This document shows positions 4,498-60,412 of a DNA stretch of 64,000 nt, piece after piece. The translations under genes were made by a program, and so were the position numbers. The notes beneath the pieces are model-generated. The model was not told the DNA's origin, searched no databases, and saw only the letters and a program-made list of their open reading frames with translations. Origin of the DNA: a virus; the IMG/VR virus record IMGVR_UViG_3300009408_000003, positions 56,328-120,327 of that record; one strand, written 5' to 3'. Positions within the stretch are counted from its first letter, which is position 1. Every line of letters begins with the position of its first letter.

Positions 4498-6096
4498 TTA
4501 AATATTAAGATTATTACCAGAAATAGTTACAATAGGACTACTTCCACCATGTAATAATTCACCTTCCGAATATGTAGTGACAGTTGGGTCAATAAGAGGA
4601 ACTGGATTATAAATACATTTACCAGCTTTACCGTAATTTAATGCGTTACGGTCACTGCATATAGGAAGATCCACTTGAATTTTTGCGTATTCTCTAACAT
4701 CGCCAGTAATTTTAAAATATTTTGATGGATTATATGATATTGTTGTTGACTGATATTCGTTACCATGCCAATTATGTAATCCAGTTTTATTCGTATATTG
4801 AATTACACCAGTGGTCGACCATACATAAAATGTTTTAAATGTGCTAGTTTTATTTTGAGAATTATCTGAAATTACGCAGCTTCCGTCATCAATTGTGGCT
4901 AATGGGTTATAATTAGTAGCTGCAGGATTTGTGCAACCACGTACATCTGTATTTGTAATTACTTCTATATCTGAACCGTTATCCTCATTTAGATAAGTAC
5001 AACTTCCGTCATCCTTAATAGCTAATGCATTGTAGTTTAATGCGTGAGGATCAGTACAACCACTAATAACAGCAGCAACACTTTCGGGTATTGTTGTTTC
5101 ATAATTAGAATCTTCAGTAGTAGTTTTTAAAATTTTACTTATAGGATCAAATGTTATTTGATCCTCTTTAGATAATACGCTATCCTTAATGATTGTTCGT
5201 TGATATAAATAAAAATCAATAATAGTTTGTAATGTAGTTACCGCAGTTGTTTTAATAGTATCTATTGATAACTCGACTGATGGTTCAGTTGATATTGAAT
5301 TACCATATATTAAAGAATTAATATCATATACTTTATTTTCCACAAAATAGTTCATTGCTTCGACATATTTTGTTTTTATTTGTTCTAAAAATGCATCAAA
5401 ATTGGGTATTTTAAATTCATCTTTTAATAACTTAATATATTCTTTACCTTCAACTGTAATCCCTTTTATTTTTAAGAAGTTTTCAACAACTCGATGAATA
5501 TCAACATTATCAATAAATTGTTTGACAAACGATATTGTATCATCTCTAAATTCTCCATTATCTGTATATACTTTGTATCGTTCTGCTAAATCTGTTAATA
5601 CTTCATCATCACCATTTTTAACTGGTAATACTCTAATTTCTGTACGTGATGGTGATATTTCATGTATCCATAATTTATCAAATTTACGGTTTTCTGAGCC
5701 AACTCGTCTATTTAATAGAGTTATTTGTGTTTTGAAAATACCATTAGTATAACCGGCTTCATTTATCAATTTTTCAGTATCTACCATATACTGACGAGCT
5801 TCGTTTGTTTTAGTAGTATCTGGATTATTATTAATTAAAAAATACTTAGAAATATTAGCATCATCTAAATAAATATAGCGAACTAGCATATTAGTATCGC
5901 CTTGTGGTAGTTGATTATTATTAGAATCATATAGAATAAATTCAATAACATCAGTTTTTCCATGACGAAACCATTGTGTACCATCTAGCCCAAATAAAGA
6001 TTTACTAAAATCTCTTTCGAAAATTTTTCTATCTTTAGAAGTTATAGCGAATCCTTTATTTCCTATTATATCTTTAAATTGATTTATATTGCTCAT
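4498..6096 (-). CDS. Virion structural protein with GCTD..NYN..A..DDGSC cysteine repeats
   Basis: 532 aa; 2 full and 1 partial repeat; within baseplate module. Confidence 0.7.
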   Translation of the reverse strand: MSNINQFKDIIGNKGFAITSKDRKIFERDFSKSLFGLDGTQWFRHGKTDVIEFILYDSNNNQLPQGDTNMLVRYIYLDDANISKYFLINNNPDTTKTNEARQYMVDTEKLINEAGYTNGIFKTQITLLNRRVGSENRKFDKLWIHEISPSRTEIRVLPVKNGDDEVLTDLAERYKVYTDNGEFRDDTISFVKQFIDNVDIHRVVENFLKIKGITVEGKEYIKLLKDEFKIPNFDAFLEQIKTKYVEAMNYFVENKVYDINSLIYGNSISTEPSVELSIDTIKTTAVTTLQTIIDFYLYQRTIIKDSVLSKEDQITFDPISKILKTTTEDSNYETTIPESVAAVISGCTDPHALNYNALAIKDDGSCTYLNEDNGSDIEVITNTDVRGCTNPAATNYNPLATIDDGSCVISDNSQNKTSTFKTFYVWSTTGVIQYTNKTGLHNWHGNEYQSTTISYNPSKYFKITGDVREYAKIQVDLPICSDRNALNYGKAGKCIYNPVPLIDPTVTTYSEGELLHGGSSPIVTISGNNLNI

Positions 6097-33705: not shown

Positions 33706-35325
33706 TTATATTTCGATGGTTTCTATTTCCTTAATTAATTTAGTATAACCTTTAGAGTTAATTTCAATTATATCAAATATTCTTTCAGACCATCCAGCAA
33801 TTTGAGTAACGTTTAATGCTCTATTAAAGACTGATTTTCCACCGGTTGCTCGTATGTTTACTGAAACAGTATTACATTTAGGGTTTATTAATTTAAATTT
33901 TTTAAACAATGATTGAAATGTTCCTAATCCTGCTCTTGATGAATAATCCCATCTACCTTCACCACCATGTCCAATAACCATATCAGAAAATATAACTAAA
34001 TTATCAACTTTAGTTTTATTTTTAATAACGTCACGCAAGAAGTAATACAACCCATTTTCAGTTGCTCCACCACAATTTCTACCCATTTTAAATGAATCTC
34101 TATTATGTTCTAATAATCCTTTTGTTCTATCCATTGGTACTAATATTAATCTATCGCCAAATAATCCAACATATACATTTTTTTGAGAATATGCTAACAT
34201 TGAACCAAATAGGTTTCCAATCATTGCAGTTGTAGTTTTTGAAAATGCTGATACCTTACTTGAACCGCCACCATCACCACGTACTGAACCGGAGTGGTCA
34301 ATTAATACTGCAGTATTACCTTCTAACATTGGAATATTTTCAACTGAATATTCTAAAGCTGTTTCTAGTCCTTTCAATATTTTAGTTTTAAGTTCATCCA
34401 TGTTTGGTATTGTATCGCCTTCAAACACAATTTTACTTTTGTTATATTTAGAAACCCCAACCTTTTCAATTTCAGTATATGCCGATGCAAATCTGAATGG
34501 TAATAATTTTGATTTTAATACCTTTCTTTTGTTAGTTAATTGAGATACTGCTTCATCAACTTTATTTGGAGCTAATGTTAAAATGTTTCTTAGATTTCTA
34601 ACTAAATTCATCATAGGCATACCTTGTACATTTTCAATCACATTTGTAATTGCTTCTTTTTTGGTTTCCTTAACATCTTTTCCGGTTTCTTTAGCTGTTT
34701 TACCAGCTTTAGTCATTTCTTTTTCAAAGATTTTAGATGAATATAATCCGTCTAAAGATTCGCCATTCATTAATCTTTTGTATGCTTCCGCATTAACTTG
34801 TGTACCTTTTGGGTGCATTAAGTTAACTAAATCAACTAAAGAAATTTCTTTCTTCTCCATTTTGTATTTATCAATTAAATATGGATCTAATGATTCCAAT
34901 TTTAATTTGAATCCTCGTTTAATTGAATTAGCAATTTTTGTACTTCCTTTTGAGAAATAATAAGCTAAGATTTCACTCATATCATCTGGTCTTTGTGCGA
35001 TTTTTTTATAAAATCTTGAAGCATATGATTTTCCGGATAATCTTGGTGCTAATTCTCCTGATAACAAGTGAGTAACAGAACGCATGTGTGAATCATGTCT
35101 TAAATACAATGCAAATTTAGCAACAAATTTTTCATCAACCTTTTTTATTGCTTCTTTAATTCTATTTACAATTTCATTTTCACTTTCGTAATATGAACGT
35201 TGTAAAAAGGTAGTTAAACAAGTTGCTAACAAATCTTCTTTTGCAGTTAGTTTATAAGCTTTTTCACCCATTTCATTTATAGTAGTTGGTACTACTTTTG
35301 GTTTTCTTTTGTTAAATTTTGACAT
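33706..35325 (-). CDS. rsr: Ro60/TROVE-domain RNA-binding protein with C-terminal vWA domain
   Basis: 539 aa; INEMGEKAY, FALYLRHDSHMRS, QRPDD, LLPFRF, MIDAS-like LIDHSGSV, IFSD, GWSERIF. Confidence 0.93.
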   Translation of the reverse strand: MSKFNKRKPKVVPTTINEMGEKAYKLTAKEDLLATCLTTFLQRSYYESENEIVNRIKEAIKKVDEKFVAKFALYLRHDSHMRSVTHLLSGELAPRLSGKSYASRFYKKIAQRPDDMSEILAYYFSKGSTKIANSIKRGFKLKLESLDPYLIDKYKMEKKEISLVDLVNLMHPKGTQVNAEAYKRLMNGESLDGLYSSKIFEKEMTKAGKTAKETGKDVKETKKEAITNVIENVQGMPMMNLVRNLRNILTLAPNKVDEAVSQLTNKRKVLKSKLLPFRFASAYTEIEKVGVSKYNKSKIVFEGDTIPNMDELKTKILKGLETALEYSVENIPMLEGNTAVLIDHSGSVRGDGGGSSKVSAFSKTTTAMIGNLFGSMLAYSQKNVYVGLFGDRLILVPMDRTKGLLEHNRDSFKMGRNCGGATENGLYYFLRDVIKNKTKVDNLVIFSDMVIGHGGEGRWDYSSRAGLGTFQSLFKKFKLINPKCNTVSVNIRATGGKSVFNRALNVTQIAGWSERIFDIIEINSKGYTKLIKEIETIEI

Positions 35326-36898: not shown

Positions 36899-37130
36899 AA
36901 TTTAAAATTTTAATGTTTATGTTTTAATAATTTATACTGTAAATATACAAAATATATTTCATATATCCTAATTTATTTGCATAAAAAAAAGGGACTAAAA
37001 TTAACTAAAATTTTAATCCCCTATAGTTTAAACGATAATATCCGGCTTTTTAGAATTATCATGATTATTCATCATAATTTTCACGTATTCGGTTTTATTA
37101 GATACTGGCTTTAATTATCGTTTATTTATT

Positions 37131-37188
37131 ATAAGGGAAAAATTGATATGAGAATATATTAATTTAATTTCAATACTTACCACTTATT
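37131..37188 (-). ncRNA. Degenerate minimal member of the Y-like stem family
   Basis: 5' AATAAGTGGTAAG / 3' TTTTTCCCTTAT, lacks TACTTCG. Confidence 0.35.
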
Positions 37189-37197
37189 ATATTATTG

Positions 37198-37325
37198 GTA
37201 AGGGAATATTTAAAAGAGTGTCATTGTTTAAAAACGCAGGGTCGAATCTGCTACCTTTTATTTTGAATATAAATGCTCTACTATGAGCTAATTTTTACGA
37301 AGTACCTCTGTTTATTACCACTTGC
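37198..37325 (-). ncRNA. Y-like RNA A: conserved stem enclosing a tRNA-like core with UCA anticodon
   Basis: CAAGTGGTAA..AGAGGTACTTCG-[TAAAAAT, D arm GCTC/GAGC, TTTAT-ATTCAAA-ATAAA, imperfect T arm, GTTTTTA]-ACACTCT..TTCCCTTA. Confidence 0.65.
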
Positions 37326-37384
37326 CGATATTTTAAAGAACGTTTTTGTTTCTTAATTCATATTGAATAGAAAAACATTTTTTG

Positions 37385-37458
37385 TATTCCGAGTAGGACT
37401 TGAACCTACGACCACCAAGGTATAAGCTTGGGACTCTGACCAACTGAGTTATCGGAAT
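37385..37458 (-). tRNA. tRNA-Ile(TAT)
   Basis: Cloverleaf; CCAAG-CTTATAC-CTTGG. Confidence 0.9.
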
Positions 37459-37662
37459 AGTTATGAAGAGTCATTGTGGCAAGAGAACCGAGACTCTTCA
37501 TTGTTTGTTATAGATTATTTTTTGTTGTTACTTGGATAAACCTATTTTCTTAAAAATTCCATAGTTTAGACGAAGTCAAACTTTAACCTTATTATGTCTG
37601 ATTTCAATTGTTTTGAATGAGCAATACTGGATACATAATCATCCATAGCGTAAAAACAACTC

Positions 37663-37740
37663 TGGTAGCGAGAGCAGGATTCGAACCTGCGTCGTTCAGC
37701 TTATGAGACTGAGCTGGGGCCATCTCCAGTCTATCTCGCG
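37663..37740 (-). tRNA. tRNA-Met(CAT), initiator-like
   Basis: Mismatched 1:72 pair, CT-CAT-AA loop, encoded CCA. Confidence 0.9.
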
Positions 37741-37869
37741 ATTTATTTTTTAAAAAATTAAACATTGTTGTAAACTACGTTAGTAGTATCAGGAATATTT
37801 TCACTGGGTTTCCTGTTTTTATGCCAGATTTATTTTTTATAATTTCATACTGAAGTATGATTTTTTAAA

Positions 37870-37941
37870 AATAAGAGAAATTTGTAATGAGTGTTTTTTT
37901 CATTTAGACAATCGAAGTAACTCATTTACTTACTACTTATT
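37870..37941 (-). ncRNA. Y-like RNA B: minimal stem-only member
   Basis: AATAAG-TAGTAAGTAA-ATGAGT-TACTTCG..ACTCAT-TAC-AAATTTCT-CTTATT. Confidence 0.65.
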
Positions 37942-37953
37942 TATATTTTATTG

Positions 37954-38026
37954 AGCTTTTAATGAGATTTGAACTCATGATCTCGTTCTTACCAAAAACG
38001 TGTTCTACCTGCTGAACTATAAAAGC
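37954..38026 (-). tRNA. tRNA-Thr(GGT)
   Basis: CGTTT-TTGGTAA-GAACG. Confidence 0.9.
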
Positions 38027-38032
38027 AATTTA

Positions 38033-38144
38033 AGAGTTTACTAGAGGCTATTGGGGGCTATCAGCGGAGAATATTTTCCTCTGTTAATTCAGATTCCCAA
38101 TCTTAATTTCCGTCTAATCTAGCCTTTTACGCTTGATAAACTCT
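38033..38144 (-). ncRNA. Unidentified structured RNA (~112 nt)
   Basis: Nested stems AGAGTTTA/TAAACTCT, AGGCTA/TAGCCT, TTGGG/CCCAA. Confidence 0.5.
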
Positions 38145-38248
38145 GTATTAAATTATAATCATGATTGTTCGGTCACAGTATGTTCTTCTAAAACTAATAC
38201 CCCCTCTGTATTTTGATTATCTTTACAGATATTTTAAATAAATTTTTG

Positions 38249-38323
38249 TACTCCAGATGGGGTTCGAACCCATAAAATTTAGTTTCTAAAACTAAAATGT
38301 CTAGCCATTTGCATCACCGGAGC
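38249..38323 (-). tRNA. tRNA-Leu(TAG), short variable loop
   Basis: TTAGT-TTTAGAA-ACTAA; no long variable arm. Confidence 0.85.
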
Positions 38324-38334
38324 ATATAAAATAA

Positions 38335-39420
38335 AATGCTGAGATTACACATTTTCTGTTAATACTTTTGTTTTCGTACCGCCAAACTGCTAAGTTTTTT
38401 GTTAAAAACGTATCCACTCATAACTTATGAGTTTATCAACATTACCGCCTTTTTTAAAGAGTGGCATTTCTCTTATCATAATAGAACTACTCGATTTTTG
38501 TTTTTCTCCCAACCTTTAGAGCTGTTAGTGGTCGCTAAACCATTAGATGCAAACTCTAATCAATTATCATCCACCTTGCGAGTTTCAGATAAACTACATT
38601 CCCGAATGGGTGTAGTATTAGGTAATTTGTTTTCTATTATTGTTAGGGTCTTTACGTTTTATCAATTTAATGATGGGATGTATAGGGTTTGAACCTATGA
38701 CACCTTGTGTTTAAAAACAAGTGCTCTACCAACTGAGCTAACTTCCCTAAAGTTAATTTTTCACTTCGATGTGCCCTAACGGTTGTTTCATACTCTTTTG
38801 AAGTACAAAATGCAACACACCAACTGTGTTTCAGATTACCAATCCTACTGTACGGTACTTCTAGTCTACACCGGAAAACAATAATGTTCCTTTCAACTAT
38901 AATACTGATTAATTGCTCTAATACTGGCGGTACTTGAACTCAAAATCTACAACTTATTCTGTTTTGGTTTTATTGAGGTAGTATCTTATAAGATAGGTAC
39001 TAACCTATTTGAACTCACCGAACGGCTCTGTTCTTATCCTTTCCTAAGGGTCTTACTTTAATTCAATTTCCTAAAAAATTGAAAACTTTCAATTTACTCC
39101 ATATTCACCATCGGTAATTAATGATGCCCCGTATAGGTTTACGGTTGAAATGTTGCTTGTTTAAACAAACCTAGTTATAGGCGGGTAGATGTGAATTTCT
39201 ATCCCTTTCGATATCTCACGATACCATATTTTTGTCTTAACCGAAGTTAAAGTAGGATGTTAAGCCACCCTTGTATCTTTATTAATGCAGTATATTCATT
39301 ATTTCTTATGTAAGTACCAATGTATAAATAATTATTTGACAATTACATGAGGTTTCAATGTTTATGTCGGATATGTACCATTATAATGATACATAATTAA
39401 CATTATTAAATAAATGACTT
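38335..39420 (-). ncRNA. Giant structured RNA, GOLLD-like, with embedded tRNA (5' boundary uncertain)
   Basis: No sense-strand ORF, many helices, UUCG/GCAA/GAAA loops, AGAG-AAATGCCA-CTCT..AAAAAAGGC pseudoknot at 38445-38476; family call from remembered motifs, not searched. Confidence 0.65.
38674..38747 (-). tRNA. Atypical tRNA with Val-like body and 8-nt anticodon loop (TTTTAAAC)
   Basis: GGGAAGTTAGCTCAGTTGGTAGAGC..CTTGT-TTTTAAAC-ACAAG..GGTTCAAACC..CATCCCA. Confidence 0.75.
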
Positions 39421-39549
39421 TAATAATACATTAATGTTTTTCAATATTTTAATGAACGTATTTTTTTAATAGTTTTGTGTTACAAAGATACGAAAAAATA
39501 TTTAAATATCCTAATTTTTTCTTAGTTTTTTTTAATTATTTTTAAAGTA

Positions 39550-39738
39550 TTAAATTCTACTTTTCAAAGTTGTTATCTCTGCTTCAATTCGTCTAATATC
39601 TCTATCAGATAATTTTATCATATTAGTACCATGTTTTTCTGGTTTTGTTTTACGTTTCAATTGTGACTGTAAACGTTTTAACGCTGACAATCTTCGTTCA
39701 GTTACTAATACGGTATGTGATACTTTTCGTTTATTCAT
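39550..39738 (-). CDS. Small basic hypothetical protein
   Basis: 62 aa. Confidence 0.6.
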   Translation of the reverse strand: MNKRKVSHTVLVTERRLSALKRLQSQLKRKTKPEKHGTNMIKLSDRDIRRIEAEITTLKSRI

Positions 39739-47375: not shown

Positions 47376-47386
47376 ATAATCTTTTG

Positions 47387-47470
47387 CTTCTTACATAGGA
47401 CTCGAACCTATACACCGAATTAACGGCATTCCCATTCGGGAATTGCGTTTACCACTTTCGCCAGTAAGAA
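47387..47470 (-). tRNA. Class II tRNA-like RNA with the anticodon loop collapsed to a tetraloop
   Basis: Leu-type D arm and variable arm; ATTCCC-GAAT-GGGAAT. Confidence 0.7.
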
Positions 47471-56234: not shown

Positions 56235-56385
56235 GAAAAATGCTATTTTTTAATAAAAATTTATTGAACCTTTTATTAATTATTATATACAAATATACAA
56301 AAAAAATATGATAAATCCTAATCTTTAACTATTTATTTTTATCAATGAATTTAAATTATATATTTTCATATTAATTTCGTGTAAA

Positions 56386-59248: not shown

Positions 59249-60412
59249 TTATCCTTTTAAAACAGCTAATGGTTTCAATTCTACAAATATTTCAACTAAG
59301 TCTTTTTGATTTTCCATTACAGTATCAATATCCTTATAAGCACTTGGTGCTTCATCTAGTTGTTGTTTAGTTTCAATGTTATGTATAATTCCACTCATTA
59401 ACTTTTGTTCTTTCTTTAAATCTAATTCTCTGATAGCTTGCTTTCTTCCCATCTTTCTTCCTGCTCCGTGAGAACACGATTTAAATGATTCATTGTTTCC
59501 TAAACCTTTTACAATATAAGATTTAGTGCCTTGTGATCCTGGAACTATTCCTAATTCATTTTTATAAGCTCTTGTAGCTCCTTTTCTATGTACTAAAACA
59601 TTTCTGTTAAAATGATTTTCCCATGCAACAAAGTTATGAGATTCATTTATGATATCGCATTCGAACGAAGTTTCCATAACGGTATTAAACGCTTCTTTCA
59701 TTTTATCAAGCATCAAGAATCTATTTTGTTTCGCAAACTCAACACAATAATTCATTTCTTTAAAGTAGTTATTAGCATAATCTGTATTTAATGGTAAGAA
59801 TGCTAATTCTAAATTTTTAGTTACACTAGAAAAATAAGTTTCATTTAATTTAATTGCAACATCGTTATAATACTTAGCTGTCTTATATCCTAGATTTCTC
59901 GAACCAGAATGTATCATTATCCATATATGACCATCAGAACCTTTTTGTATTTCAATGAAGTGGTTACCACCACCTAAAGTTCCTATTTGCACTTTGGCTT
60001 TATCATAATTTTGGTTAATTATTTCAAATTCATCATTTGGTCTTTCAGGCATAAACCCAGTATAACTTTGGTCTTTTTCGTGCCAGTTAAAACCGACAGG
60101 AATTAATTCTTTAGCCTTTTCTACTATTTTTTGTAATTCTTCTTTTGATATATCGGTTAAGTTGGTCTTAACAGCACACATCCCGCAACCTATATCTACC
60201 CCTACTGCGTTAGGAACAACAACTCCCTTAGTCGCTAAGACAGCTCCGATTGGCATTCCATACCCTTGATGCGAATCAGGCATAATAGAAATGTGTTTAA
60301 AAGCAAAAGGTAAGTTTGCTAGATTTTTAGCTTGTTCTAAAGCGCCATCTTCAATATCATCTAACCATAATTTGATTGGTAATTTTTCTGTTGTAACATA
60401 TTTTTTAGCCAT
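59249..60412 (-). CDS. rtcB: RtcB RNA 3'-phosphate ligase
   Basis: MPDSHQGYG, VGVDIGCG, GTLGGGNHF, IHSGSR, HRKGAT, SCSHGAGR, YKDI. Confidence 0.97.
   Translation of the reverse strand: MAKKYVTTEKLPIKLWLDDIEDGALEQAKNLANLPFAFKHISIMPDSHQGYGMPIGAVLATKGVVVPNAVGVDIGCGMCAVKTNLTDISKEELQKIVEKAKELIPVGFNWHEKDQSYTGFMPERPNDEFEIINQNYDKAKVQIGTLGGGNHFIEIQKGSDGHIWIMIHSGSRNLGYKTAKYYNDVAIKLNETYFSSVTKNLELAFLPLNTDYANNYFKEMNYCVEFAKQNRFLMLDKMKEAFNTVMETSFECDIINESHNFVAWENHFNRNVLVHRKGATRAYKNELGIVPGSQGTKSYIVKGLGNNESFKSCSHGAGRKMGRKQAIRELDLKKEQKLMSGIIHNIETKQQLDEAPSAYKDIDTVMENQKDLVEIFVELKPLAVLKG

Follow-up and report, generated by a model that had tools for sequence, protein, structure and literature searches.

The window, i.e. 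the whole stretch of 64,000 nt analysed here, corresponds to positions 56,328 to 120,327 of the IMG/VR virus record IMGVR_UViG_3300009408_000003. This 120-kb record carries phage genes, and its completeness is estimated at 71% by CheckV. The sole sequencing run that holds the sequence is a hydrothermal vent metagenome, which is the probable source sample. Between 37.2 and 48.9 kb of the window, 31 tRNAs are encoded on the (-) strand, and a large non-coding RNA of the GOLLD family (39271-38333) lies on the same strand inside this array. All features of the window described below are on that strand unless stated otherwise. The tract had been described from its letters alone as ORF-free, and indeed its transcribed strand has no ORF of at least 40 aa; the only longer frame is an antisense ORF of 97 aa with a TTG start (38399-38692). 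The RNA is followed by a 76-nt tRNA-Leu(tag) (38323-38248; ARAGORN, and 47.5 bits in Rfam), which begins 10 nt past the last GOLLD helix. This tRNA has a Leu anticodon, UAG, yet class-I size, a mismatch also present in several of the modules embedded in related GOLLDs. Elsewhere in the array, ARAGORN reported an 85-nt tRNA with a 2-nt 'anticodon' (47386-47470) that was not reported by Rfam at gathering score, and no tRNA-Tyr was called.

The neighbouring genes code for a Ro60/TROVE protein, an HD hydrolase, RtcB, an HNH endonuclease and PhoH. The Ro60/TROVE-domain protein (33706-35325; Pfam E 6e-14) and the RtcB RNA ligase (59249-60412; PHROG E 8e-121), together with the tRNA array and the GOLLD, look like an RNA-repair or RNA-quality-control gene set. 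Using the Ro60/TROVE gene, three related phages were found (L122 to L124), with a Ro60 gene 69-81% identical to that of the window. No GOLLD was detected in them within the region fetched, and the equivalent slot of L123 (6888-7777) harbours a tRNA-Leu, an HNH endonuclease gene and an 87-aa ORF between conserved flanks. The slot is thus a variable one, and the GOLLD in it a dispensable cassette. An ORF-free stretch of ~220 nt between two tRNAs (38243-38027) is 70% conserved with L123 (7768-8066). It has no Rfam match and is a candidate for a small structured RNA, with the Ro60/TROVE gene ~3 kb downstream.

Upstream of the GOLLD, we identified a promoter-like bipartite motif, TTAGGA-N18-CGTATCTTTGTA (39514-39481), as a candidate start of the GOLLD/tRNA unit. 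Its general form, TTAGGA-N17-21-GTATNTTNGTA, occurs four times on the (-) strand for 0.01 expected, and the motif is conserved in L123 (6794-6880), directly upstream of a tRNA. The promoter that the sequence-only reading had placed near 39482 falls inside this repeated and conserved motif, for which we infer that function. Written as TTAGGA-N17-21-GTAT(C/A)TTTGTA, the sites are at 39514-39481, 49358-49325, 51825-51792 and 56321-56288, with a fifth variant at 40504-40470; they are intergenic and precede tRNA, ncRNA or gene blocks. The TATCTTTG part resembles the Bacteroidota -7 box. A scan for sigma-70 promoters performed at chance level in this AT-rich window (27 found for 20.9 expected). The repeated bipartite motif is likely to be a phage or host promoter. 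Based on its repetition and conservation, a transcript start near 39477, with a leader of ~205 nt, is plausible. The window sequence was not found in any run on record as RNA.

Membership in the GOLLD family and the 3' domain

The GOLLD RNAs, collected in Rfam as RF02032, were reportedly described by Weinberg et al. in 2009. They are composed of a variable 5' domain and a conserved 3' domain, with a variable linker between them that sometimes contains a tRNA (PMC12286853, PMC12990946, PMC6582537). Two of them have been characterized by cryo-EM, namely env-38 (833 nt, 14-mer, PDB 9MEE) and the S. agalactiae GOLLD (700 nt, 12-mer, PDB 9L0R), and a D-symmetric, RNA-only cage is thus known from members other than that of the window (PMC12286853, PMC12990946).

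Using cmscan, RF02032 was found to match the window at 38336-38823 over model positions 1-416, with an E value of 1.2e-40 and a score of 152.2 bits that is only 2 bits above the gathering score of 150 bits. We also searched for ROOL (RF03087), another large phage RNA found near tRNA islands that forms a cage too, but of unrelated fold. It has no sequence or structure match in the window, with zero hits at E<=10 in 36900-39700 and none at gathering score across the window. The sequence-only reading had assigned the tract to GOLLD and proposed a search with the Rfam GOLLD and ROOL models; the assignment is borne out by a match above gathering score over the full model, ROOL yielding nothing at E<=10.

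To collect relatives, viral contigs were scanned with a 3'-domain motif, which yielded 120 GOLLD loci. Only two of those, L094 and L091, were recovered by nhmmer with the upstream part of the window. In a whole-element nhmmer search, L094 aligned colinearly over 39246-38319 (E 3e-67). A motif common to the window and L091, GAACAGAGCCNNTCGGTGAGTTC, was used to retrieve 24 viral loci, which align to the window over ~39046-38335 with E values from 1e-14 to 1e-39 (nhmmer). Rescoring nine relatives (L094 and 8 of the 24 motif loci) with RF02032 gave 161-194 bits, and in all nine the match starts exactly at the end of the 5'-domain alignment. The closest relative found is L094 (IMGVR_UViG_3300035034_001514). 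It shares with the window the first hairpin, P1, and its pseudoknot, a UUCG hairpin, and a tRNA-like module with an identical anticodon stem, but it is ~885 nt long, its module has a 7-nt loop, AUUAGGA (anticodon UAG), and it is devoid of the window insert at 39094-39055. Two pattern scans for further 5' domains of the L094 type returned L094 and chance matches only. The L094 contig also harbours a tmRNA (1388-1744; Rfam 86.5 bits). Among deposited phages, DNA similarity is limited to the tRNA piece, which is ~79% identical to a tRNA annotated as tRNA-Phe in Staphylococcus phage K-like phages.

The Rfam alignment gives the conserved half of the RNA in detail. The P13 hairpin with its UUCAAAAG loop (38762-38824) corresponds to model positions 1-60, with a cmscan posterior probability near 1. 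Within it, the hairpin GUUGGUGUGUUGCAUUUUGUACUUCAAAAGAGUAUGAAACAACC (38824-38781) occupies model positions 1-45, and this is also where the GTGTGTTGCATT..CAAAAG..CAAC hairpin of the sequence-only reading is found. The 3' domain proper (P14-P27; 38333-38657) aligns with model positions 130-416. It includes a long-range pseudoknot between AAUAAUAGAA (38641-38632) and UUCUAUUAUG (38486-38477), the CUCGCAAGG signature loop (38582-38574) and a terminal hairpin (38355-38333) with the loop GUAAUCUCA (loop motif 38348-38340). The motifs CTCGCAAGG and GTAATCTCA, noticed earlier from the letters, were located at 38582-38574 and 38348-38340, respectively. An H-type pseudoknot that had been proposed was likewise recovered (38474-38445). 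Its stem 1, AGAG/CUCU, covaries to GGUC/GACC, AGUG/CACU, GUGG/CCAC and CGUG/CACG in relatives, and its stem 2, GCC/GGC, is a helix annotated in the Rfam model.

Like other RF02032 members, the window element thus combines a full-length model match, a conserved 3' domain with its pseudoknots and characteristic CUCGCAAGG and GUAAUCUCA loops, a P13 hairpin with the UUCAAAAG loop, a variable 5' domain and a location in a phage tRNA array. It differs from them by its greater length (~939 nt), very AT-rich sequence and score barely above cut-off, and by an additional UUCG hairpin that follows P1 and is shared with L094 only, and a private insert of ~40 nt. These analyses establish it as a genuine GOLLD, i.e. 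a new member, ordinary in kind, of a known family of giant phage non-coding RNAs.

The tRNA-like module in the linker

A tRNA nested at 38674-38747 had been noticed from the letters, and both Rfam and ARAGORN detect it, with 59.8 bits for a cut-off of 29 bits in the former (RF00005). It is located in the J13/15 linker, inside a long unpaired stretch of RF02032. All four arms of the cloverleaf (acceptor, D, anticodon and T) are present, the T arm being of normal appearance. Six of the seven positions of the acceptor stem, GGGAAGU/ACAUCCC, are paired, with one A-A mismatch, and the discriminator is A73. The anticodon loop, UUUUAAAC, is 8 nt long, between the stems CUUGU and ACAAG; the window module thus departs from the 7-nt loop in which U33 and a purine at position 37 frame the triplet. 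ARAGORN labels it 'tRNA-?(Stop|Leu)(ttaa)'. No CCA is encoded, which also holds for the majority of the phage's tRNAs. None of the window's other 30 tRNAs is a close paralogue, the best identity being 69% except for 74% with a long, intron-bearing tRNA-Pro.

The presence of a tRNA in the J13/15 linker of GOLLDs is already published (PMC12990946, PMC12286853, PMC6582537), and this linker has been placed inside the cage (PMC12286853). Thus, the tRNA-Phe of a Mycolicibacterium GOLLD (PMC12990946) and the pseudo-tRNA of the M. aubagnense GOLLD (PMC6582537) occupy the same linker position as the window module. The latter differs from such linker tRNAs by its 8-nt loop and by an acceptor stem that is more canonical than those of most embedded modules we examined.

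We next looked at the equivalent site in relatives. A tRNA-like module is present in 19/19 non-redundant viral relatives, versus ~9/84 in a general GOLLD sample. With metagenome contigs included (L125-L147, L091 and L209-L259), 39 of the 41 unique GOLLDs of the subfamily contain a module, and 13 anticodons are represented. In the modules of this subfamily, the body is conserved, the top of the acceptor stem is mismatched (UCGCAAA/UUUGUAU), and CCA is missing. Their bodies are class-I even with Leu or Ser anticodons, and the free tRNAs at those loci are canonical. Unlike the subfamily modules, the window module has a canonical GGG/CCC acceptor top, which makes its processing and charging possible. 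A free tRNA matching the embedded anticodon was found in seven of eight loci compared; in L147, which also carries a manA RNA (5770-5941), the free tRNA is His-GUG and the embedded anticodon is AUG.

The anticodon loops of these modules keep a constant shape. U33 is invariant, its column having zero entropy, and each loop inspected has a purine at position 37, and the other loop positions vary; two loops, including that of the window module, have 8 nt. Nevertheless, the loop differs about six times more often than the rest between near-identical GOLLDs. In six independent close pairs, differences were counted at 17/43 loop positions versus 245/5,019 elsewhere (p 1e-11), and in a larger set of 13 independent close pairs at 18/92 versus 348/11,303 (Fisher p 6e-10). 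In L125/L128 and in L210/L220, the tRNA bodies are identical and five of the seven loop positions differ. These figures should be read with the mosaic nature of the GOLLD family in mind, as whole hairpins are exchanged, and in the larger sample the anticodon-loop window merely ties as the most variable one. In the literature searched, no paper reports such variability in GOLLD modules, and the variability of their anticodon loops is a new observation.

The module might also be freed by RNase P and RNase Z and work as a decoder, as an ochre suppressor (UUA), a quadruplet or +1 frameshift reader (UUAA), or a UUA/UUG reader (UAA). Its canonical cloverleaf, with a score in the mid-range for the tRNAs of this phage, its acceptor stem with 6/7 pairs and A73, and the U33 and purine 37 kept in the loops of relatives are consistent with such a role. 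Classical frameshift suppressor tRNAs also have 8-nt loops. However, 52 of the 66 ORFs of at least 80 aa end with TAA. TAA recoding or read-through is not supported, as the long TAA read-through frames turned out to be adjacent genes with their own ATG starts. No sign of recoding was detected, the large structural genes being intact under table 11, and a class-II tRNA-Leu(UAA) is already present in the array. The Leu and Ser anticodons on class-I bodies, the defective acceptor tops and the missing CCA of the related modules also argue against decoding, and expression of the mycobacterial GOLLD pseudo-tRNA was not detected (PMC6582537). We consider a decoder improbable; it keeps some chance because the acceptor stem of the window module is better than those of its relatives. 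We prefer to interpret the tRNA-like module as cargo or bait carried by the cage, and not as an ordinary decoder, based on its 8-nt loop and on the fact that relatives keep the shape of the loop, with U33 and, in the loops inspected, purine 37, while the anticodon is freely swapped.

The 5' domain and the extent of the RNA

The Rfam GOLLD model spans P13-P27 only, and a variable 5' domain has been described for the family (PMC12286853, PMC12990946), which raised the question of whether 38824-39420 represents that domain. The nhmmer alignments with L094 and the 24 viral loci, together with covariation, delineate a 5' domain at 38825-39271. Homology and covariation begin at P1 (39271-39254), a hairpin of 6 bp with a 6-nt loop. 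This loop, GCUUAA, pairs with UUAAAC near 39163-39158, a hexamer that directly precedes a conserved CAAGC. The pseudoknot is maintained through compensatory changes, with five of six pairs in the window and six of six, two of them wobble, in L094. P1 is followed by the UUCG-capped hairpin TTAACTTCGGTTAA (39250-39237), which is the TTAAC-TTCG-GTTAA element of the sequence-only reading. P1, its loop pseudoknot and this hairpin are common to the window and L094, and the larger subfamily is devoid of the UUCG hairpin. Further parts of the domain are a hairpin at 39225-39210, the window-specific insert of ~40 nt at 39094-39055 and the conserved segment GAACAGAGCCGUUCGGUGAGUUC at 39033-39011.

Covariation was assessed on an alignment (A1) that combines the window and 18 of the retrieved 5' domains, and whose consensus comprises 105 pairs. 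Compensatory changes affect 66 of these, 95.9% of the cells are paired versus 33-39% when the partners are slid, and none of 500 shuffles reached the observed covariation score. Of the 105 pairs, only 65 are compatible with the window itself in this sequence-based MAFFT alignment. A covariance model of the first half of the subfamily 5' domain (R1) did not match the window with default filters; with filters off, it scored 1.3 bits at the right place (39269-39140). Given this failure, the outer ~225 nt (39271-39046) rest chiefly on L094 and on agreement at the level of motifs. Minimum-free-energy z-scores were also considered and set aside as uninformative, thermodynamic folding alone being not significant for the 5' domain (z -1.2) or the leader (z -2.0). 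As judged from homology and covariation, 38825-39271 is the variable GOLLD 5' domain and not a second RNA. The element thus shows the full family architecture, with a 5' domain closed by the P1 loop pseudoknot, P13, the J13/15 linker and the 3' domain.

At the other end, 38333 is the final position of the last helix, AAAAUG...CAUUUU, and 38323 is the first position of the next tRNA. Upstream of 39271, no alignment to any relative was found, and at the equivalent position relatives carry a promoter or an upstream tRNA. The conserved RNA therefore extends over ~939 nt (39271-38333), versus 825-861 nt in the subfamily and ~885 nt in L094. The 5' limit at 39420 and the size of 1.1 kb (1,085 nt) proposed in the sequence-only reading have to be revised, since homology starts at 39271 and the 39272-39420 stretch, at 20% GC, has no relative. 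The added domains that had been invoked to explain the extra length are not what we found. Rather, the excess over relatives (825-885 nt) corresponds to two helix insertions, the UUCG hairpin shared with L094 and the private insert at 39094-39055. The stretch between the RNA and the promoter-like motif (39272-39480) is an AT-rich leader outside of the conserved GOLLD, with a palindromic hairpin at 39395-39372. Its GC content is 19.6%, whereas the RNA body (39271-38333) has 34.6% and the window as a whole 27.9%.

That the element might be a decaying GOLLD relic with no function in this phage is suggested by its borderline Rfam score, its odd anticodon loop, its AT-rich sequence at 34.6% GC and the sister phages lacking it in the region fetched. 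However, every family helix and pseudoknot of the 3' domain can be aligned with high posterior probability, compensatory changes keep the pairing relative to L094 and the subfamily, and the GC content is 15 points above that of the flanking leader, which makes a relic very unlikely. That 38824-39420 might be a separate large RNA, ROOL-like or new, adjoining a short GOLLD would fit the Rfam match at 38336-38823 only, but is hardly credible, as no ROOL or other Rfam family matches there at E<=10, for which reason these candidates were rejected, as the region is colinear with the 5' domains of Rfam-verified GOLLDs, and as the Rfam model stops at P13 in a family with a published variable 5' domain (PMC12286853, PMC12990946).

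Possible roles of the cage and its module

Altogether, it is highly probable that 39271-38333 encodes a GOLLD of this architecture, which would form a cage, be co-transcribed with the array and acquire its 3' end by tRNA processing, the module being a putative cargo or bait. By analogy with the GOLLDs studied by cryo-EM, the RNA would self-assemble into a hollow cage of 12 to 14 subunits. The linker would face the interior of this cage, so that one tRNA-like module per subunit would be displayed inside. The GOLLD is probably co-transcribed with the downstream tRNAs from the 39514-39481 motif, and cleavage by RNase P at the 5' end of the 38323-38248 tRNA could set its 3' end.

A more specific, tentative proposal, which we consider rather unlikely as it stands, is that the anticodon loop is a fast-switching specificity element. 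Each cage might then offer 12 to 14 anticodon-arm baits or protected spare tRNAs, directed at factors that recognize the anticodon loop, host anticodon nucleases for instance. If true, this would fit the presence of genes for an RtcB ligase and a Ro60/TROVE protein in the window phage.

GOLLDs are among the largest bacterial and phage RNAs, and the structure of their cage was solved only in 2025. With the window member, the family now includes a very AT-rich phage from a hydrothermal vent, and exact ends and insertion sites become available for structural work. In one subfamily, a tRNA-like cargo is near-universal, and its anticodon loop has a genuine shape but evolves more quickly than the remainder of the molecule. 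These features suggest that a partner of the cage reads anticodon loops. Such variability of the anticodon loop in a conserved, putative cargo may thus represent a testable handle on the function of GOLLD RNAs.
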